From positions 1,504,001 through 1,568,000 of the forward strand of contig CAWHDR010000001.1 of NCBI GenBank assembly GCA_963828165.1: a stretch of DNA of 64,000 bases. Direction: 5' to 3'. Within the stretch, counting starts at the first letter, position 1. Every line of letters starts with the position of its first letter. The notes under the pieces are model-generated. The model had not been told where the DNA came from and did no database searches. It saw nothing but the letters and a program-made list of their open reading frames with translations. Shown here in pieces: positions 48,883-56,490 of this stretch. This DNA is from an uncultured Chloroflexia bacterium (GTDB lineage Bacteria > Chloroflexota > Limnocylindria > Limnocylindrales > CSP1-4). Made by a program: the position numbers and the translations under genes.

Positions 48883-49644
48883 TCAGATCCGCCGGCGGAC
48901 GAATCGCCCCGGGGCCCCCGCGGCGTGTATCGCTGCGCGGATCCCGGCGTTGTGGCGGACGTTCCCGACATGGCGCCACTGGCGGCGGCGATCCACGCAC
49001 ACGATCTCAGTCTCTACTTCGACTCCCGTCGCGCCAAGCCGCGCCGCCACGTTTGCCAGCGTGGTTTCCCAGAACCGGTTGTTGACACGATGGCCACCGA
49101 ACACCAGCCCCATCTCGAACAGCGGGTCGCTCGCTCGCTCGAGCGCCTGTGCCTGGATGATGACCGTGCCGCCGGCCGCCCGCGTCGCGCTGAACGTGAT
49201 CCATGCCGCCAACATGTGACCCTCCGGCGACATGAGCGTGAAGGCCTCATCGTCGGCGTACAGCACCAGCACGCCCGTATGGAGCTTGACCGGGCCCGCC
49301 GCCGCCACGGAGAGCAGGGCGACCTCGCCGGGACGGATCCCCGCAAGCGGCGCGTAGAAGGTGTTGCCCTTGGGCCAGAAGCTGGAGAACTCGGTTTTCC
49401 AGGTGGCGATCGCCTCCTCCGGGGTCAGGCTGGTCTCGGCCGGAAGGCGAACGCGGAACGTTTTCTGCCACATCTGCCCGAAGCCTTGGAGAGGCCCCGC
49501 AACGCGTCGCCCAGCCACGGTCGCGGCGACACCTCCGCCGTCCGGGTCGGAGACGGCAAGCCGGTCGACAGGCCGGGCCCAGCTGTCGGCATCGGTTCGC
49601 CGGGGGGTCGACTCGGTCACGGGTTCGCTCGGGCTTGCGCTCAT
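48883..49644 (-). CDS. conserved hypothetical protein, DUF1990/SRPBCC-like fold suspected
   Basis: GPLQGFGQMWQK, TGVLVLYADDEAFTLMSPEGHMLAAWITFSA. Last gene of the partner-switching run. Fold is inferred. Confidence 0.65.
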   Translation of the reverse strand: MSASPSEPVTESTPRRTDADSWARPVDRLAVSDPDGGGVAATVAGRRVAGPLQGFGQMWQKTFRVRLPAETSLTPEEAIATWKTEFSSFWPKGNTFYAPLAGIRPGEVALLSVAAAGPVKLHTGVLVLYADDEAFTLMSPEGHMLAAWITFSATRAAGGTVIIQAQALERASDPLFEMGLVFGGHRVNNRFWETTLANVAARLGATGVEVETEIVCVDRRRQWRHVGNVRHNAGIRAAIHAAGAPGRFVRRRI

Positions 49645-49720
49645 CGGTCCTCTCGCTTAGCGGATGACCCGATCTTGCGGGGCAACCGTCCGGAGATCGT
49701 TACGAGCCGATCCCGGTAGG

Positions 49721-50884
49721 TCACGTGGAACGGCTGCGGACCCAGACTGTGGTCAGCGACGGCCGAACCGCCTGGTCGGCGGCATCGACCAGGGACCTGC
49801 CTACGGCATCCGATTCGACCTCATCACGGAGTCGGCTGCCGAAGGTTTCGACCATCCGCTGATGGTCGTAGCGCGAGCGATAGAACCGTCGGTCGACGAC
49901 CGCCCGTACCGAGCCCCGCACCGGCCCGAATAGTGCGGCGATCGCCAAGGTCGAAAGCGCGACGGGCAGGGTGTCACCACCGGTCAAGGGCACGAGGACC
50001 GCCTGGAGGGCGATGACGAACGAGACATAGAGGACGCCCAGGATGGCGATGACGGCTCCGTAAACGAGCGTGCGCCGGACTACGACGTCGATGTCGTACA
50101 GGCGGTACCGCAAGACGGCGATACCCGCCGCGAGCGGGATGAGAAGGAGAGTGCCGAACACCGCGTAGCCTGCGCTGTCGCCGGCGGTTCCGCGCAGGTC
50201 CATCGCGAGGACGAGCCATGCCCCAGCCTGGAGTGCTGCGGCGAAGGTCATCCACTTGAGTTGCTGACGCTCGATCCCGCGTTCCGCGCGCAATCTCACG
50301 ACCAGGCTCAGGCCGGCAGCAACCGCGCCCGCCAGGAGCGGGAACCAGCCGACGCCACCGCTCTCCAGCGGCGACCCGGTGAATCCAGCGATACCGACCG
50401 GGTTGCGCAGGCGGGGATAGTCCACCAGGGCCGGGGTGAAGGCATTGCCGATCGCGACGAGCAGCGCCCCGCCGATCACCAGAACGGCCGCGATACGCCA
50501 CCGGCGCGATGCCAGCCTGCCGGTCGGGAACAACAGGATCAGCAGGAGCGGGGGAGCGAGCGTGACCGGGAAGCCCCAGGTCGCGACCCATCCGGCCCAG
50601 TCTTGGCCCGCGACCGGCCGCGCGAGGCGGGCGATCGAGTCGAACAGCGCGACGGTCGCTCCGACGACCCCCGTGACCAAGGCAAGGCGGCCGATCACGT
50701 TGCCCGGCTGGCGGCCGACGATCAGTGCACCCACGGCCCCGAACGCCAGGTACGCTGCCGGGAAGAGCACGATGTCGGGCGTCAGCGGTTCCTGGACCCC
50801 GATGGCCCAGAGGACGAGTGCCGCGATCATCGTCACGAGCAGCCCGACGAAGACGATGCCTGCGCGCCAGGGCGTCCGATTCAT
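49721..50884 (-). CDS. multi-pass membrane receptor-like protein ending in the N-terminal part of a GAF domain, no output domain
   Basis: About 9-10 TMs. Motifs PGNVIG, LLFPTGRL, NPVG, ERQQLKW, AVLRYRLYDID. Tail VDRRFYRSRYD...LRDEVESDAVGRSLVDAADQAVRPSLTTVWVR. Confidence 0.8.
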   Translation of the reverse strand: MNRTPWRAGIVFVGLLVTMIAALVLWAIGVQEPLTPDIVLFPAAYLAFGAVGALIVGRQPGNVIGRLALVTGVVGATVALFDSIARLARPVAGQDWAGWVATWGFPVTLAPPLLLILLFPTGRLASRRWRIAAVLVIGGALLVAIGNAFTPALVDYPRLRNPVGIAGFTGSPLESGGVGWFPLLAGAVAAGLSLVVRLRAERGIERQQLKWMTFAAALQAGAWLVLAMDLRGTAGDSAGYAVFGTLLLIPLAAGIAVLRYRLYDIDVVVRRTLVYGAVIAILGVLYVSFVIALQAVLVPLTGGDTLPVALSTLAIAALFGPVRGSVRAVVDRRFYRSRYDHQRMVETFGSRLRDEVESDAVGRSLVDAADQAVRPSLTTVWVRSRST

Positions 50885-52077
50885 CGAGCCGGGCCGCCGC
50901 GGACCCAGACGCCGGCAGACGCGGGCCGCACGGCTTGTGCCGCGACGTCGACAAGACTTCGTCCGACAGCGTCGACCTCGACCTGGTCGCGCAGCTGGCC
51001 GGCGAACCGCTCGAGCGTCTGTCGCGCGTCATAGCGCGAGCGATAGAACCGGCGATCCACCATCCTCTGGACGCGCGCTCTCACGGGACCGAACATCGCC
51101 GCGATCACGAGCGTGGATATCGCCACCGGCAGCGTCTCGCCCCCGATGAAGCCGCTCAGGACCGACTGGAGCGCGAGCACCAGCCCGACGTACACCGCGC
51201 CAAGGATCGCGACGAGTGCGCCGTAGATCAGCGTGCGCCGGATGACGAGGTCGATGTCGAACAGCCGGTGCCGCAGGATCCCGATCCCGACACCGATCGG
51301 GAATCCGCTGAGACCGAGTAACGCCAGCGACCAGGCGGCGGTATCGGAGGTCGCGGCGGCGAGGGCGAGTCCCGCGACGAAGATCGCCGCCGGGTACAGC
51401 AGCCACTTGATCTGCTGGCGCTCAAGGCTCCGGCTCCGCCGGAAGCGCACCACGAGTGAGATGACGGCCGCTGCGGCCATCGCGACGAGGGCAAGGCTTC
51501 CCAGCGGCAGGAACGCAGCAAGGGCGTCGGCGAGCGGCCCGCTAACGCCGAATGGGTTCTGGAAAGCGCCCCCGTAACTTTCGAGGGGGCCCGGCTGGAT
51601 CGCCTGCGCCACGATGAGGACCACCGCGACCCCGATCGCGACCCCGACCACCGGTCGCCAGCGGGGTCCCGGCAGCCGGCCGTCTGGAAAGAGCATCACC
51701 GCAAGCGGGAGGGCGATGCCCACGGCGACGTACCAGCTCCAGCCGCCAGCCCAGGCGACGATTTCTGGACCCGGCAGGCTCGCTCCGGTAAAGGCCACGC
51801 GACCGGCGTACTCGGTGGCGACGATGGCGAGCGAGATGGCGATCCCGACTACCAGGAACAGCCAGCCGACCGGGTTGGCCGGCCGCATCCAGGCGATGGC
51901 GAGCCCGACGCCCGGAAAAGTAATGAAGATCACGGAGATGATCAGGACGTCGATGAAGCTCGGCCGGTCCGGGATCTGCTCGTTGCCGGGCAGCACCAGC
52001 GAGACGAGCCCGGACACATCCATCGCGAGACAAGCGATGAAGAGCAGCAGGGCGAACAGACGCCCGGTCCGTATCAT
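50881..52077 (-). CDS. paralogous multi-pass membrane receptor-like protein with partial GAF tail
   Basis: RPANPVGWL, LFPDGRLPGPRWR, ERQQIKW, ILRHRLFDID, VDRRFYRSRYDARQTLERFAGQLRDQVEVDAVGRSLVDVAAQAVRPASAGVWVR. ATGA-coupled on both sides. Confidence 0.8.
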   Translation of the reverse strand: MIRTGRLFALLLFIACLAMDVSGLVSLVLPGNEQIPDRPSFIDVLIISVIFITFPGVGLAIAWMRPANPVGWLFLVVGIAISLAIVATEYAGRVAFTGASLPGPEIVAWAGGWSWYVAVGIALPLAVMLFPDGRLPGPRWRPVVGVAIGVAVVLIVAQAIQPGPLESYGGAFQNPFGVSGPLADALAAFLPLGSLALVAMAAAAVISLVVRFRRSRSLERQQIKWLLYPAAIFVAGLALAAATSDTAAWSLALLGLSGFPIGVGIGILRHRLFDIDLVIRRTLIYGALVAILGAVYVGLVLALQSVLSGFIGGETLPVAISTLVIAAMFGPVRARVQRMVDRRFYRSRYDARQTLERFAGQLRDQVEVDAVGRSLVDVAAQAVRPASAGVWVRGGPAR

Positions 52078-52424
52078 CCGAGCCGCAGCGCCTCTTCCTC
52101 GCTGTCGACCACACCGATCGCCTCATCGAGGCGAGTAAGCGACAGGATCTCGCGGTAGTGCTCTGACAGTCCGAAGGCCATCAGCCGCTGGCGCTGACGC
52201 TGGGCCCGGACGAGCAACGTGACGAGCAGGCCGATGCCCGTGCTGTTCATGTACTCGAGCTCGCTGAAGTCGAGGACCACGACCCGTGTCGAGGGGTCGG
52301 CGGCGCGGCCATAGGCATCCATCAATGCGGCGTCCGTCGTTCCGGTCAGCTCGCCTCGGATCGCGATGATCGCAGCGCGCTCGCTGGGTCGACGGACCTC
52401 CAGGACGGTCTCGGTGTCGGGCAT
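52074..52424 (-). CDS. STAS-domain anti-sigma-factor antagonist
   Basis: IRGELT...VVLDFSELEYMNSTGIGLLV...EILSLTRLD. GGAGGAG Shine-Dalgarno before ATG 52424. Confidence 0.9.
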   Translation of the reverse strand: MPDTETVLEVRRPSERAAIIAIRGELTGTTDAALMDAYGRAADPSTRVVVLDFSELEYMNSTGIGLLVTLLVRAQRQRQRLMAFGLSEHYREILSLTRLDEAIGVVDSEEEALRLG

Positions 52425-52455
52425 GGCGGTGCTCCTCCGCTGGGCTGCGTCGTGA

Positions 52456-52791
52456 TCAGACACGGGCCGCGGCCCGGTCGGGATGCAACGTCACGAAATC
52501 GGCGAGCCGGGTGATCTCGAAGATCTCCCGGTAGTGATCGCTGAGCCCGAAGGCGTGCACGTCGCACCGATCGGCGCGGGCGCGAGCGAGGAGCTGGACG
52601 ATGACCGCCAGCCCGGTGCTGTTGATGTACTCGGTGCCACCGAAGTCGAGAACGACCCGATCGACGCCCGAGGCCGCCTGGGCCCACGCCTCGAGCAGGG
52701 CCGTCTCCGCGTCCCCGTCGATCTGTCCGACGAGTTCGATGACGGGTGCGTCGCCCTCGGTCCGGACGCTGGCGTTGAATCGGTCGGTCAC
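52456..52791 (-). CDS. STAS-domain anti-sigma-factor antagonist
   Basis: LVGQIDG...VVLDFGGTEYINSTGLAVIV...EIFEITRL. GTGA overlap with upstream gene. Confidence 0.9.
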   Translation of the reverse strand: MTDRFNASVRTEGDAPVIELVGQIDGDAETALLEAWAQAASGVDRVVLDFGGTEYINSTGLAVIVQLLARARADRCDVHAFGLSDHYREIFEITRLADFVTLHPDRAAARV

Positions 52792-54356
52792 GATGGTGCC
52801 TCCTCGAGGTGGAGTACGAGCTCGGCGGTGTGGTAGCGGCCGTCGGATGTGACGCGGACCGCGTCGACCATCTGCTGGATCAGGAAGATGCCCCACCCCC
52901 GCGGCTTCTGATCGCCGGCCAGCTTGGCCGCGACGTCGGGGGTCTCGACGATCGGGATGGCCTGGTCGCCGCCCTCATCCCGGATGCGGACGACGAGGTC
53001 CCGGCCCTCGACACCGGCCGTCACGCGGACGGGGATCTCGGGCCGGTTATGGTTGCCATGCTCGATCGCATTCATCGTGGCCTCGGCGACCGCGGTCTTG
53101 AGCTTCTCGAGGGTCGGCGTCGCCAGTCCGAGCGGCGCCACGGCCGCCGCCACGCGGTCCATCGCTTCGCGTTCACGGCCGGGCTCGCTTGGCAGCTCGA
53201 ACTCCGTGAGCAGCCCGTCGTCGTGCCAGCCGATGGAGACAAGGGTGATGTCGTCCTCCTGCTCCCAGTCCGGGCCAGTGAACCGTTCCAGCTCAGCGAG
53301 GACCGCCAGGAGCAGGCGGTCGCCGCCATCCGCTCGGGCGATGACGTCGCGAAGTCGGGGGATCCCGAACATCTCGTGGTCGCGCCCGTGGGCCTCGGCG
53401 ATCCCGTCCGACGAGAGGACGAGCTGGTCGCCGCGGGCCAGGCGGGTTTCAGTCTCCGTGTAGCGCATCCCGGGCATCAGTCCGAGCGGCATGCCCGTGG
53501 CCCGCAGCTCCTCCGCGCCCGTCGACGACCGGACGATCGGGAGGTTGTGTCCGGCGTTCGCGAAGCGGATCAGGCCGGTCGCCGGGTCAAGCACGCCATA
53601 GAGGCAGGTGACGAACATCCGCGGGGGCATATCGGCCTGGAGCAGGTCATTGGCGCGCGCCAGGACCTCGCCGGGCGACGCGGCTTCCTGGCCGGCGGCG
53701 CGGAGGAACGATCGTGTGGCCGCCATCACCATCGCCGCGGGAACGCCCTTGTCCGTGACATCCCCAACCGCGAACGCCAGGGTCCCGTCGCTGCGCTCGA
53801 CGAAGTCGTAGAAGTCGCCCCCGACCGCCCTGGCCGGACGGTAGTGGGCCTGGACGCTCCAGCCCGACGGCTGCGGCAGCACCAGCGGGAGGAAGTGCTG
53901 CTGGATCAGCTGGGCGACCTGGAGCTCGTGCTCGAAGCGTTCTCGCTTGACCGCCTCCGCTTCCTGCTCGCTCACGAGCTGGGCGATCCGGAGCGCCGGC
54001 GCAGCCTGCGCGGCCAGGCTCTCGAGCAGCTTCCGATCGTCGGCCGAGTAGTCCTGGTCCGAGAGTCGGGGGCCGAGGTTGAGCGACCCGACCAGCTCGC
54101 CGTGGGTGATGAGCGGGACGACGAGCGAGACGCCCGCCGCGCGCCATGCACGCAACGCCGGGGAGTCAAGTTCGAGGCCGTCGAGGTCGACCGCGCCGTG
54201 CGCCGCCTCGAGGTAGGGGAGCAGCGGGTCGTTCTCGGCGATCGGCAGTGGAGAGGTCGCGTCGGACGGCCGTTCCACCGCGAGATCGGGCGGGACGCTC
54301 GCGGCCACACTGCCGCGCCCGATGGCGCGGCGCAGGGCGCCGCCGATCAGGGTCAT
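52788..54356 (-). CDS. partial GAF + SpoIIE/PP2C phosphatase + RsbW-like HATPase (anti-sigma kinase) fusion
   Basis: Half-GAF VSLVVPLITHGELVGSLNLGPRLSDQDYSADDRKLLESLAAQAA. PP2C VGGDFYD, VGDVTDKG, NAGHN, SSDGIAEA, QEDDIT. Kinase EATMNAIEHG, RDEG, RGWGIFLI. Confidence 0.9.
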   Translation of the reverse strand: MTLIGGALRRAIGRGSVAASVPPDLAVERPSDATSPLPIAENDPLLPYLEAAHGAVDLDGLELDSPALRAWRAAGVSLVVPLITHGELVGSLNLGPRLSDQDYSADDRKLLESLAAQAAPALRIAQLVSEQEAEAVKRERFEHELQVAQLIQQHFLPLVLPQPSGWSVQAHYRPARAVGGDFYDFVERSDGTLAFAVGDVTDKGVPAAMVMAATRSFLRAAGQEAASPGEVLARANDLLQADMPPRMFVTCLYGVLDPATGLIRFANAGHNLPIVRSSTGAEELRATGMPLGLMPGMRYTETETRLARGDQLVLSSDGIAEAHGRDHEMFGIPRLRDVIARADGGDRLLLAVLAELERFTGPDWEQEDDITLVSIGWHDDGLLTEFELPSEPGREREAMDRVAAAVAPLGLATPTLEKLKTAVAEATMNAIEHGNHNRPEIPVRVTAGVEGRDLVVRIRDEGGDQAIPIVETPDVAAKLAGDQKPRGWGIFLIQQMVDAVRVTSDGRYHTAELVLHLEEAPS

Positions 54357-54424
54357 GCGTGGCCGTCCGGTGTCGCGATCCGCTTCATCGTGGTCATCCT
54401 CATCGACCATCATTCCGAGATCGT

Positions 54425-54458
54425 TACGATGCAACCCCGCCCGGCGCGGCACAAGGAG
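54425..54458 (+). promoter_or_regulatory. putative -10 box and Shine-Dalgarno for the BTAD regulator
   Basis: TACGAT at 54425-54430. AAGGAG at 54453-54458, 7 nt before in-frame CTG 54466. Confidence 0.45.
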
Positions 54459-54465
54459 CGACGGT

Positions 54466-56490
54466 CTGACGCTGCGTATCACCCTCCTCGGGCCACCTGA
54501 CGTCCGCATCGACGGCGACCCTCTCCTCGTCGACACGCGAAAGGCGGTGGCGCTGCTCGCCTACGTGGCCATGGTCGGCCGACCGGTCGCCCGCGCGTCC
54601 CTGGTCGACCTGCTCTGGCCGGACGCCGAGCCCGACTCGGGCAGCGGGTCGCTGCGGCGGACCCTCAGCGTCCTGCGATCGGGTCTGGGCGGACGTTGGC
54701 TTGCGGTCGATCGGCGTCAGGTCGCCCTGGCCGGGGAGGAGATCACGCTGGACGTCTCGGTGGCGCGCACCGTGTTCGCGGCTGCGTCGCACGATCACGG
54801 ACCAGGGGAGGCGTGCCCGTCCTGTCGTCGCACGTTGGCGCGCGGGGCGGCCCTCTTCCGCGGCGAGTTCCTCGAAGGGTTCGCCCTGCGCGATAGCGCC
54901 TCCTTCGACGAGTGGCAGACCCTGGAGGCGGAGGCGCTTCGTGGTGAGCACGGGCGAGCGCTCCTGCGTCTCGTCGCACTCGAGGCGGCGGAGGGGAGAT
55001 TCACACACGCCATCGCCACGGGACGGCGGCTCGTGGCGCTCGACCCGCTCGATGAACGAGGGCATCGGGCGTTGATGCGAGTCCACGCGGATGCGGGCGA
55101 TCGGCACGCCGCGGTTCGCGTCTACGACGAGTGCGTCCGGATCCTCGCAACCGAGCTCGGTGTCGCGCCAGACGCCGAGACCACTTCGTTGCACGAGGAC
55201 ATCCGCTCCGGACGTTTCGAAGCGAGGTCCGCGACCGTTCGCCCGACGCCCGCCCCGGCTCCCGCACCCACGTCGGCGTTCGCCGGGCTCGACGCCGTCA
55301 CGAGGGACGTCCTCGCCGCCGCCGCCATCGTCGGGCGGGAGGTAGACCCGGACATCGTGGTTGACGTCGCGGGCCACGGCGAGGCCGACGTGGCAGGCGC
55401 GATCGATCTCCTCGTCGGCGGTGGGATCCTGGCGGAGACCGGCCAGGAGCAGCGCGACTCCTACCGCTTTCGAGACGACCTCATCCGGACCGCAGTCCTG
55501 GAGGAGCTCGGATCGGCCCGGCGACGCGCCCTGCATCGCCGCGCTGCGACCATCCTTGCGACCCGGTTCGATCGTGCCACCGGGGACGGATGGATCGCGG
55601 CGCGCATCGCCGAGCACCTCGCGGCAGGTGCTCGTCCCCTCGAGGCCGCCGCATTCCATCGACGCGCCGCGGAAGCCGCGCGTCGGATCTCCGACCATGG
55701 GCTGGCCGCCGAACAGTTCCGGGCCGCACTCCTGCTGGGCGACCCCGAGCAGGCCGAGCTCTACGCCGCGATCGGCGATGCCGAGACCTTGCTGGGGCGC
55801 TACGGGGAGGCGCTGGCCGCGTACGAGCTCGGGGCCGCGCTCGCCCAGGCGGCTGAGGTCCCTGCCTTCGAGCTCAGGCTCGGCAGCCTGCACCTGCGAC
55901 GCGGTGCCCTTGAGCTCGCGGAACTCCACCTTGCCGCCGCGCTGGTTCGGATCGGCGAAGCGCCGTCCCCCACTCGAGCACGAGTCCTCACCGAATATGG
56001 TCTCGTGGCCGTGCGCCGAGGCGACGAATCGACCGCCCGCGAACTGGCCGACGAAGCGTTGACGATCGCTCGGGCAAGCGCGGACTCGCAGTCGGAGGCA
56101 CACGCGGAGAATCTCCTCGCGATGCTGGCGCGCCGCTCGGGCGATGGCGAGGCGGCCCGCCAGCACCTGCGGCGGAGCCTGGAACGTGCCGGTGTCGCTG
56201 ACGATCCCTCGGCACGCCTCGGGGCGCTCAACAATCTCGCGCTCCTGGAACGGGCGGCCGGGAATCTCGAAACCGCACTCGATCTCACGGACGAAGCGCT
56301 GCGTCGCTGCGTGTTCATCGGGGATCGTCACCGCGAGGCCGCGCTGCGCAACAACCGCGCCGACCTTCTGCACGCCATGGGTCGACCAGCCGAGGCGGCC
56401 GAGGAGCTCGTCCGCTCGGTCACTGCATTCGGGGAGGTCGGCGATCGAGCGGGCCTTCAGCCCGAGATCTGGAAGCTCGTGGACTGGTGA
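54466..56490 (+). CDS. SARP/AfsR-like regulator: wHTH + BTAD + TPR, lacking a P-loop ATPase domain
   Basis: LRITLLGPP, RKAVALLAYV, LLWPDA, FRGEFLEGF, LDPLDERGHRALM, ELGVAPDAET, TPR tail. Start is uncertain: CTG 54466 proposed, ORF track gives 54322. Confidence 0.85.
   Translation: MTLRITLLGPPDVRIDGDPLLVDTRKAVALLAYVAMVGRPVARASLVDLLWPDAEPDSGSGSLRRTLSVLRSGLGGRWLAVDRRQVALAGEEITLDVSVARTVFAAASHDHGPGEACPSCRRTLARGAALFRGEFLEGFALRDSASFDEWQTLEAEALRGEHGRALLRLVALEAAEGRFTHAIATGRRLVALDPLDERGHRALMRVHADAGDRHAAVRVYDECVRILATELGVAPDAETTSLHEDIRSGRFEARSATVRPTPAPAPAPTSAFAGLDAVTRDVLAAAAIVGREVDPDIVVDVAGHGEADVAGAIDLLVGGGILAETGQEQRDSYRFRDDLIRTAVLEELGSARRRALHRRAATILATRFDRATGDGWIAARIAEHLAAGARPLEAAAFHRRAAEAARRISDHGLAAEQFRAALLLGDPEQAELYAAIGDAETLLGRYGEALAAYELGAALAQAAEVPAFELRLGSLHLRRGALELAELHLAAALVRIGEAPSPTRARVLTEYGLVAVRRGDESTARELADEALTIARASADSQSEAHAENLLAMLARRSGDGEAARQHLRRSLERAGVADDPSARLGALNNLALLERAAGNLETALDLTDEALRRCVFIGDRHREAALRNNRADLLHAMGRPAEAAEELVRSVTAFGEVGDRAGLQPEIWKLVDW

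Follow-up and report, generated by a model that had tools for sequence, protein, structure and literature searches.

The DNA analysed here is a stretch of 64,000 nucleotides (the window) from an uncultured Chloroflexia bacterium (GTDB lineage Bacteria; Chloroflexota; Limnocylindria; Limnocylindrales; CSP1-4), corresponding to positions 1,504,001 to 1,568,000 of the forward strand of contig CAWHDR010000001.1 in the NCBI GenBank assembly GCA_963828165.1. Six genes, all on the minus strand between positions 48883 and 54356 of the window, encode an enzyme with phosphatase and kinase domains, two STAS proteins (STAS1 and STAS2), two membrane receptors (A and B) and a protein of the DUF1990 family. 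Comparison with related proteins and structure modelling pointed to a GAF domain whose parts are divided between the receptors and the enzyme. The features of the locus were the following:

52788..54356, minus strand: soluble bifunctional enzyme of 522 amino acids (aa), with a disordered N-terminus, a GAF remainder, a long linker helix, a PP2C domain and an RsbW-like serine kinase domain
54243..54356, minus strand: enzyme residues 1-38, where a variable linker comes after the conserved basic start M-T-x5-L-R-R-x3-R
53952..54242, minus strand: GAF remainder, enzyme residues 39-135 (Pfam GAF_2 and structure model)
53226..53792, minus strand: PP2C (SpoIIE-family) phosphatase domain (Pfam SpoIIE, E 3e-50)
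52833..53192, minus strand: HATPase_c_2 (RsbW/SpoIIAB-like) serine kinase domain (Pfam, E 3.4e-21)
52456..52791, minus strand: STAS1, of the anti-sigma-antagonist type (Pfam STAS, E 2.3e-11; TIGR00377, E 1.4e-14)
52074..52424, minus strand: STAS2 (Pfam STAS, E 2.5e-13); the longest open reading frame (ORF) starts at 52463
50881..52077, minus strand: receptor A (398 aa), with a cytoplasmic tail after about 10 membrane helices
50884..51066, minus strand: tail of receptor A, residues 338-398, with the DRRFYRSRYD helix, a second helix and the RPxxxxVWVR strand
49721..50884, minus strand: receptor B (387 aa), paralogous to receptor A, with an ATG that overlaps the stop codon of receptor A (ATGA)
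49724..49903, minus strand: tail of receptor B, with the same helix-helix-strand order, ending ...RPSLTTVWVR
48883..49644, minus strand: DUF1990-family protein of 253 aa, encoded by the gene that regularly closes the operon (Pfam DUF1990 at E 0.032, short of the cut-off; protein atlas; gene order)
54322..56490, plus strand: SARP-family regulator (BTAD and TPR domains), divergent from the enzyme gene; 54322 is the start of the longest ORF

The initial annotation of this DNA had described a co-oriented and largely translationally coupled run of six genes, and the run was found as described, most of its junctions being overlaps of 4 bases. The overlap was ATGA at both the STAS2/receptor A and the receptor A/receptor B junctions, and a gap of 76 bases separated receptor B from the DUF1990 gene. 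The range given at that time (48883-56490) also holds the divergent SARP regulator, a conserved neighbour that had been left undescribed. The start of STAS1 is most likely the GTG at 52791, which forms a GTGA overlap with the enzyme stop, rather than 52896; that of STAS2 is most likely the ATG at 52424, preceded by a GGAGGAG motif. The true start of the SARP regulator is uncertain and probably lies near 54460. The best homologues of the proteins of the system came from Chloroflexota, several of them labelled Candidatus Limnocylindria.

Receptor tails and enzyme N-terminus

Receptors A and B shared 41-42% identity and neither one belonged to a Pfam family. More than 3600 homologues of similar length were found (3618 of the 8000 scored candidates, with an E of 0.001 or lower); among the best 120, most measured 360-435 aa and none of these had a Pfam family. 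Those receptor matches that had a name were all named 'hypothetical protein', with the exception of one labelled MFS family permease. When receptor A was modelled alone, the predicted local distance difference test score (pLDDT) was 81.5, exceeding 90 over most of residues 1-270, and the model was a bundle of about 10 helices without any beta sheet; residues 382-398 remained unstructured (pLDDT below 50). From the positions of the basic loops we infer that both ends of the protein are cytoplasmic, and the outer loops would be short. A fold search with the receptor gave weak matches to animal seven-helix receptors (E 0.016 or worse, none at 1e-3 or better, root-mean-square deviation of about 8 Å), which we read as a generic likeness among helix bundles.

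Both receptors had been said to stop just after the RPxxxxVWVR motif and to resemble the membrane input region of GAF-containing kinases. Clean TGA stops were indeed located 5 and 6 residues past ...VWVR, and the membrane region was homologous to the input region of receptor-GAF-HisKA_3 kinases of roughly 700 aa (E about 1e-40 to 1e-50). A partial match to the PrsK model (TIGR02916, NCBIfam) was also obtained, in which the receptors covered profile positions 203-347 and the enzyme positions 408-475, that is, complementary parts. The scores (23.9, 22.0 and 18.6 bits, against a curated cut-off of 300) showed that neither the receptors nor the enzyme are PrsK members.

Using the last 99 residues of the receptor as query, 10182 cluster representatives were retrieved at E 0.001 or better, 6659 of them at 1e-10 or better. 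The tail was complete in 148 of the best 150 representatives; 139 ended within 25 residues past the tail, three at 26-40 residues and six later. A GAF remainder was found in none of these six later-ending proteins, which look like fragments or like read-through into the next receptor gene. The comparison of paralogues within the same locus (190 pairs, 158 complete receptors) gave 30% identity over residues 1-210, 54% over residues 211-330 and 66% in the tail. An aspartate, an arginine, the proline and the tryptophan were invariant in 77 tails.

The ATG of the enzyme at 54356 agreed with the N-termini of 102 aligned homologues (each of at least 500 aa), which have a common short basic start. 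This start (residues 1-14, 54315-54356) was kept in the split enzymes, where many Actinomycetota have F-R-R-R, and was missing in the fused forms described below. The enzyme had been described as lacking a transmembrane segment and as beginning with the remainder of a GAF domain. Both points held: no hydrophobic segment was present (the highest 19-residue Kyte-Doolittle mean was 1.39), and the GAF models were matched by their last third only (GAF_2 profile positions 88-135 of 136, E 1.8e-8; GAF positions 90-133 of 133). Neither the enzyme nor the receptors contained a whole GAF profile (Pfam PF01590, PF13185 or PF13492) in one polypeptide. A tail hidden upstream of the enzyme was considered and rejected, as a 60-codon extension to the GTG at 54536 brought no further GAF match (still profile positions 81-135). 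With enzyme residues 1-135 as query, 1500 proteins were found at E 0.001 or better, the best 120 being mostly of 512-558 aa.

Modelled alone, enzyme residues 1-190 had a pLDDT of 70.8 and residues 1-35 were disordered (pLDDT below 50). The rest consisted of helices at 45-51 and 66-73, strands at 78-84 and 87-93, and a helix at 105-154 leading into the PP2C domain; a hairpin plus helices was thus obtained and not the complete GAF that the initial annotation had named as the outcome speaking against it. Among the matches listed in a fold search with this N-terminus, almost all were GAF-containing chains, at weak scores (best E 8e-3, none at 1e-3 or better); the template-modelling (TM) score was 0.33-0.48 against single GAF domains, over 71-109 aligned columns.

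The downstream domains of the enzyme appeared intact. D181, D184, D199, D317, D368 and D369 of the PP2C domain, which we take to be its metal-binding positions, were invariant in 38 sequences, and so were E425, N429, H433, G434, D460, G462 and G487-G489 of the kinase domain, ATP-lid residues included. The kinase domain was matched by the NCBIfam anti-sigma F factor model (E 5.5e-12); this model and the RsbW model both remained below their equivalog cut-offs.

Fused relatives and genomic distribution

Relatives that carry receptor, GAF and PP2C in a single chain were found among longer proteins (P0140, of 906 aa, and its shorter relative P0132) and in whole genomes (L088, L089, L092 and L093). 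The kinase domain was also part of the chain in two of them (P0140 and L088). Two further proteins, P0127 (1608 aa) and P0161 (1272 aa), joined the same receptor and a complete GAF to CARDB and to a STAND NTPase (nSTAND1/AAA_16); in single-chain form, the membrane module is thus coupled to outputs of very different kinds. The Pfam GAF model scored above its cut-off in P0161, P0127 and L088, covering profile positions 1-133 or 8-133 from the helix equivalent to the tail to the end equivalent to that of the enzyme. In P0161, where the GAF occupies residues 378-529 (profile 1-133), receptor A aligned to residues 45-409 (E 3e-50) and the enzyme to residues 495-539 (E 2e-10). Receptor A and the enzyme thus mapped to the two ends of one GAF, the complementary coverage expected by the initial annotation. 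As judged from these alignments, the cytoplasmic end of the receptor appears to correspond by homology to the opening helix and strand of the GAF in the fused relatives, and the enzyme carries the rest of this domain.

The fused PP2C forms had a low-complexity linker of about 14-50 residues between the first strand and the conserved I-A-x-N-D-P segment. The split point of the window corresponded to the start of that linker, and enzyme residues 1-35, at the same place, were those modelled as disordered. The idea that the basic N-terminus of the enzyme supplies the missing second GAF strand was rejected: these residues were modelled as disordered and without confident contacts, and the fused forms have the low-complexity linker there. 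In a quick tree, whose outgroups were on very long branches, the fused forms (six sequences) fell into two clusters interspersed with the split forms. The genomes G206 and G235 (loci L092 and L093) had two enzyme matches each; the lower-scoring one was a fused receptor-GAF-PP2C chain and the higher-scoring one, aligned from enzyme residue 1 or 7, looks like a split form.

One rival reading takes the receptors and the enzyme of the window as pieces of a single gene interrupted by a sequencing frameshift, by faulty assembly or by recent pseudogenisation. Frameshifted pieces of receptor or enzyme do occur in some loci from metagenome bins (L050, L055, L062, L076, L058 and L090). In the window, however, the GAF remainder lies upstream of the receptors, with two STAS genes between. 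A scan of species genomes provided 77 receptor-seeded loci with 230 complete tails; in 228 of these the next stop came within 23 codons, in the remaining two within 37 codons, and no ORF of the loci had the tail ahead of a GAF remainder. The same split was present in isolate Kribbella genomes (L021, L030 and L033), and thousands of homologues had the same lengths. The exclusion of a frameshift by the initial annotation, made on gene order, was upheld: because the tails end at nearby stops and the lengths of the homologues agree by thousands, the split as read from these sequences is real, and breakage of a single gene, already refuted by the counts, has practically no probability left.

Some copies of the genes were themselves broken. 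In four arrays, receptor copies extended over two or three frames (L050:10989-11628, L055:10702-12361, L062:5296-7658 and L076:9106-10404), which points to decaying paralogues or to sequencing errors in the metagenome bins. The enzyme was interrupted by a frame change within or after the PP2C domain in several loci (L090:9485-11222, in genome G141; L058:12876-14484; L063:4288-5963; L046:12575-14550). In G141 an open frame of 298 aa was present at both enzyme matches. These interruptions of the enzyme may be real or may be sequencing errors.

The enzyme was present in 30 of the 77 loci, usually directly after the receptor array. The usual order across loci was a divergent SARP gene, the receptor array, the enzyme, two STAS genes and the DUF1990 gene; receptor arrays were tandem and co-oriented, with up to 11 receptors in one locus. 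The window is an order variant with both receptors between the STAS pair and the DUF1990 gene, and one receptor had the same placement in L001 and in L002. The STAS pair and the DUF1990 gene followed the enzyme in 28 of the 30 enzyme loci, the remaining two being cut by contig ends. A SARP homologue (E < 1e-30) was found in 26 of these 30 loci, and three of the four loci that had none offered less than 1.6 kb of upstream sequence. Judged from its gene content, the locus of the window belongs to a widespread type of signalling locus with six parts, composed of SARP, one to many receptors, enzyme, two STAS proteins and DUF1990.

Co-occurrence was counted in whole genomes, where matches of related genomes are not independent and hence no statistic is given:

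Chloroflexota: 151 genomes; enzyme N-terminus in 13, tail in 19, both in 12
Actinomycetota: 151 genomes; enzyme N-terminus in 28, tail in 31, both in 28

Five of the Actinomycetota genomes are unpublished, and excluding them the numbers became 23 with the enzyme, 26 with the tail and 23 with both, of 146. The three tail-only matches in Actinomycetota were weak (E 1e-9 to 1e-10). The sole enzyme-only genome of Chloroflexota (G143) carried the fused form, and in six of the tail-only genomes of this phylum the tails were located inside open frames measuring 721-1213 aa, which presumably represent fusions with other output domains. In each of the five lone-receptor genomes tested, the enzyme had a single strong match at another place (E 1e-36 to 1e-42). 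The number of matches per genome ranged from 1 to 21 for the receptor and from 1 to 2 for the enzyme. The survey thus yielded the co-occurrence, the excess of receptors and the fused full-length homologues anticipated by the initial annotation, for which a lack of genomic association would have been unfavourable. Receptor and enzyme are very probably two parts of one system.

Proposed tail docking and output of the module

A model of the complex between enzyme residues 1-150 and receptor A residues 334-398 gave an interaction prediction score from aligned errors (ipSAE) of 0.65 (0.63, 0.65 and 0.66 in the runs), and the best of three controls reached 0.00. Of the solved complexes, 58 of 80 attained the mark used for this score, as did 2 of 110 mismatched pairs; this calibration holds only roughly here, the model having been built from our own unpaired alignments. 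The contacts agreed by at least 86% between runs and the pLDDT of the partner was at least 68. The tail strand of receptor A (residues 385-395) was antiparallel to enzyme strand 89-95, the closest pairs being 93:389, 91:391 and 95:387 (enzyme:receptor), and the tail helix (365-379) packed on enzyme helix 106-129. The pairing of the tail strand with an enzyme strand was what the initial annotation had foreseen for such a model. In the GAF/PAS topology, these positions would be those at which the opening strand and helix of the domain sit. Within the model, the tail proline and tryptophan met the invariant G90-G95 strand of the enzyme.

On the grounds of this model and of the fused relatives, it is fairly probable that the receptor tail docks on the enzyme through completion of a GAF fold across two proteins. 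The tail strand would lie beside the last GAF strand of the enzyme and the tail helix on its last GAF helix, so as to form one GAF-like fold. The complex as modelled would express complementarity rather than binding in a cell.

Several results weigh against this interpretation, in addition to the rough calibration mentioned above. The two 79-residue tails had no Pfam match at E up to 10, and a profile of 77 tails compared with PDB sequences found two matches only, neither of them to a GAF (E 0.68 and 1.9). Since the direct searches with the tail were negative, its identity as part of a GAF depends on the fused relatives and on the complex model. The initial annotation had stated that tails with no GAF homology or no predicted interface would count against it: the absence of a direct match does so, whereas an interface was predicted and homology was indicated indirectly through the fused forms. 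The GAF itself is degenerate, the fused forms having a low-complexity linker at the expected position of the second strand. The GAF remainder of the enzyme was modelled at a pLDDT of 82-92 (residues 41-150) in the absence of the tail, and could therefore be stable by itself; the complex score might stem from the familiarity of the model with intact GAF folds; and no contact was predicted for the conserved basic N-terminus of the enzyme. As to the distribution, one genome that is 84% complete (G057) had three stand-alone receptors and no enzyme match, and a lone receptor without any other gene of the system was seen in 21 of the 52 loci in which 3.5 kb or more of sequence preceded the first receptor. 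Other partners were sought beside lone receptors and none was retained: of ten downstream ORFs in ten enzyme-less loci, seven matched unrelated Pfam families (oxidoreductase in two cases, a LuxR/STAND regulator, an MFS transporter, SufB with an intein, CTP synthase and a glycosyl hydrolase) and three had no family. A loose scan with hidden Markov models found no GAF remainder among the neighbours in 22 enzyme-less loci. The SufB gene mentioned (L040:8649-11297) carries an intein with Hint and LAGLIDADG domains.

Some of these observations would also fit a different reading, according to which the two halves no longer meet after the fission: the tail would serve the receptor itself, in oligomerisation or with another partner, and the enzyme would be controlled either through its N-terminal part or by the two STAS proteins and DUF1990. 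The tail without direct GAF signal, the enzyme remainder modelled confidently alone and the many receptors unlinked to an enzyme gene are consistent with it. We regard it as quite unlikely, for the paralogues are most alike in the tail (66% identity, compared with 30% over residues 1-210), its invariant proline and tryptophan (77 tails) face the invariant G90-G95 strand of the enzyme in the model, the controls of the complex model scored 0.00, and the co-occurrence is near complete (tails in 28 of 28 and 12 of 13 enzyme-positive genomes of Actinomycetota and Chloroflexota, respectively).

If the tail docks as modelled, the completed fold would order the helix that links the GAF to the PP2C domain, and an ordered linker would shift the balance between dephosphorylation and phosphorylation of the conserved serine of both STAS proteins. 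The linker is proposed because the long helix of the enzyme fits the linker role known for RsbU-type phosphatases; excerpts of PMC12143880 describe how sensor domains, GAF included, control such phosphatases via a coiled-coil linker that dimerises the PP2C domains. The paralogous receptors combine variable membrane parts with a constant tail, because of which we propose that they share the enzyme and would pool different membrane-level signals. In its full form, this reading makes fold completion a plug-in interface: up to about 20 paralogues per cell would time-share one enzyme, each lending it the opening helix and strand of its GAF, the exposed tail would complete the fold and switch it, and the output would run from the STAS proteins to DUF1990 and the SARP/STAND regulator, with no sigma factor. 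We advance it tentatively, as a possibility that stops somewhat short of probable. Receptor exchange, binding and the effect on STAS phosphorylation are what we infer here.

Sharing of this kind competes with a constitutive anchoring, in which receptor and enzyme would be the subunits of a former single-chain sensor phosphatase, permanently paired, the signal passing through the rebuilt GAF without exchange or sharing and the split having no regulatory meaning. The complex model is silent on dynamics. Moreover, fused and split forms were interleaved in the quick tree and were found together in G206 and G235, hence they seem functionally equivalent. Nevertheless, a stable one-to-one pairing is made less natural by the excess of receptors, which reached 21 matches to one of the enzyme per genome, and by lone receptors far from the enzyme gene, unless the enzyme were in large excess. 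On balance we consider permanent pairing unlikely, and prefer the docking of several receptors on a shared enzyme.

The proteins required for partner switching could be recognised by sequence: a PP2C phosphatase, an RsbW/SpoIIAB-like kinase and STAS antagonists with a putatively phosphorylatable serine. TIGR00377 scored above its cut-off for both STAS proteins; the serine of the NSTG motif of STAS1 was present in 29 of 29 aligned sequences and that of STAS2 in 28 of 29, the remaining row having a gap. None of the 29 Sigma70_r2 matches of the genome lay within the system, and there was none between C1:1,493,713 and C1:1,570,917; the nearest ones (C1:1493501 and C1:1570917) were both outside the window. 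The output may, speculatively, proceed via the DUF1990 protein and/or the SARP regulator rather than through a sigma factor.

The DUF1990 protein scored 14.8 bits with PF09348 (E 0.032), below the Pfam cut-off of 23 bits. In the protein atlas it was placed with clusters named DUF1990 at 0.97-0.98, one of which had PF09348 on 75% of its members, and because of these scores it is likely to be a distant member of the family. No relative with a solved structure was found by sequence. The title of one paper links DUF1990 to the chloroplast outer-envelope channel Oep23. The regulator was assigned to the SARP family by Pfam BTAD (E 2.4e-22) and TPR_12 (E 1.6e-16) and by a partial match to the NCBIfam AfsR model (E 5.6e-21). 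Regulators of this type combine BTAD with a DNA-binding N-terminus, and their large forms have a STAND ATPase and TPR repeats in addition. The Pfam scan detected no AAA_16 domain in the 722-aa copy of the window, whereas four of four scanned SARP homologues had an AAA_16 STAND ATPase between BTAD and TPR (L021:4593-7436, L049:2394-5267, L056:5631-8897 and L091:7009-10233); the copy of the window therefore looks like a shortened form, as far as the domain scan can tell.

Comparison with known systems

Literature searches for a split, partial, half or strand-complemented GAF, with subscription journals and supplementary files outside their reach, found nothing relevant. Among the papers listed on partner switching with GAF, PP2C or transmembrane proteins, on gene fission and on split domains, none dealt with this system, as judged by title and start of abstract. 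The statement of the initial annotation that no such system had been described thus stands for the literature searched. Partner-switching modules and GAF-regulated PP2C phosphatases are known; the division of a sensor domain between receptor and enzyme, and receptor arrays that share one enzyme, appear undescribed.

The system recurs in two phyla, in soil Chloroflexota and in Actinomycetota, cultured Kribbella included, and the proposed reading would explain thousands of unannotated membrane proteins at once. It offers a concrete mechanism, in which a tail strand with an invariant proline and tryptophan would, according to the model, bind a defined strand of the enzyme, and it makes DUF1990 and a SARP/STAND regulator candidates for the output of partner switching. 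If true, it would represent a new bacterial wiring of many inputs to one output, and a natural precedent or template for modular split-domain biosensors.

Completion of a fold by another chain occurs in the donor-strand complementation of chaperone-usher pili and in split PH domains, where one chain lends a missing strand or segment to the domain of another. Those cases serve fibre assembly or eukaryotic scaffolding, and are not known to link a bacterial receptor to an enzyme or to involve a GAF domain.

Like the window, the RsbR/stressosome-RsbT-RsbU-RsbV-RsbW system of Bacillus subtilis combines a PP2C phosphatase with a kinase of the RsbW type and with STAS antagonists that carry a phosphorylatable serine. 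Several sensor paralogues lead to one phosphatase that is controlled via a helical linker before the PP2C domain, as is proposed for the window. The window differs in having the kinase fused to the phosphatase, no nearby Sigma70_r2, and DUF1990 and SARP as neighbours. In the Rsb system, the RsbT kinase binds the N-domain of RsbU, a control described in excerpts of PMC12143880, whereas the window has integral membrane sensors and a predicted completion of GAF.

The same excerpts of PMC12143880 describe fusions of sensor domains to PPM phosphatases, namely Rv1364c of M. tuberculosis (PAS-PPM-anti-sigma-antagonist), OsaC of S. coelicolor (GAF and PAS) and RsbZ of C. difficile (tandem GAF). As described there, they share with the window a cytoplasmic sensor domain joined to the PPM by a helical linker and, in Rv1364c, an RsbW-like domain in the chain; in contrast to the window, their sensor domain is complete in the chain, with no part of the fold supplied by a receptor and no receptor arrays.

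PrsK (TIGR02916) and the receptor-GAF-HisKA_3 kinases have a homologous membrane input region, and differ in their histidine kinase output and in having the GAF whole in one chain. The fused relatives share the membrane region, the DRRF-type helix, the ...QPxxxxxW/L.. strand, the end of the GAF, the PP2C domain and the kinase (P0140 and L088), in colinear order. They differ in being one polypeptide, with one receptor per enzyme and a linker of 14-50 residues that is rich in proline and glycine or of low complexity; the place of this linker is taken in the window by a stop codon, by other genes and by the disordered N-terminus of the enzyme.

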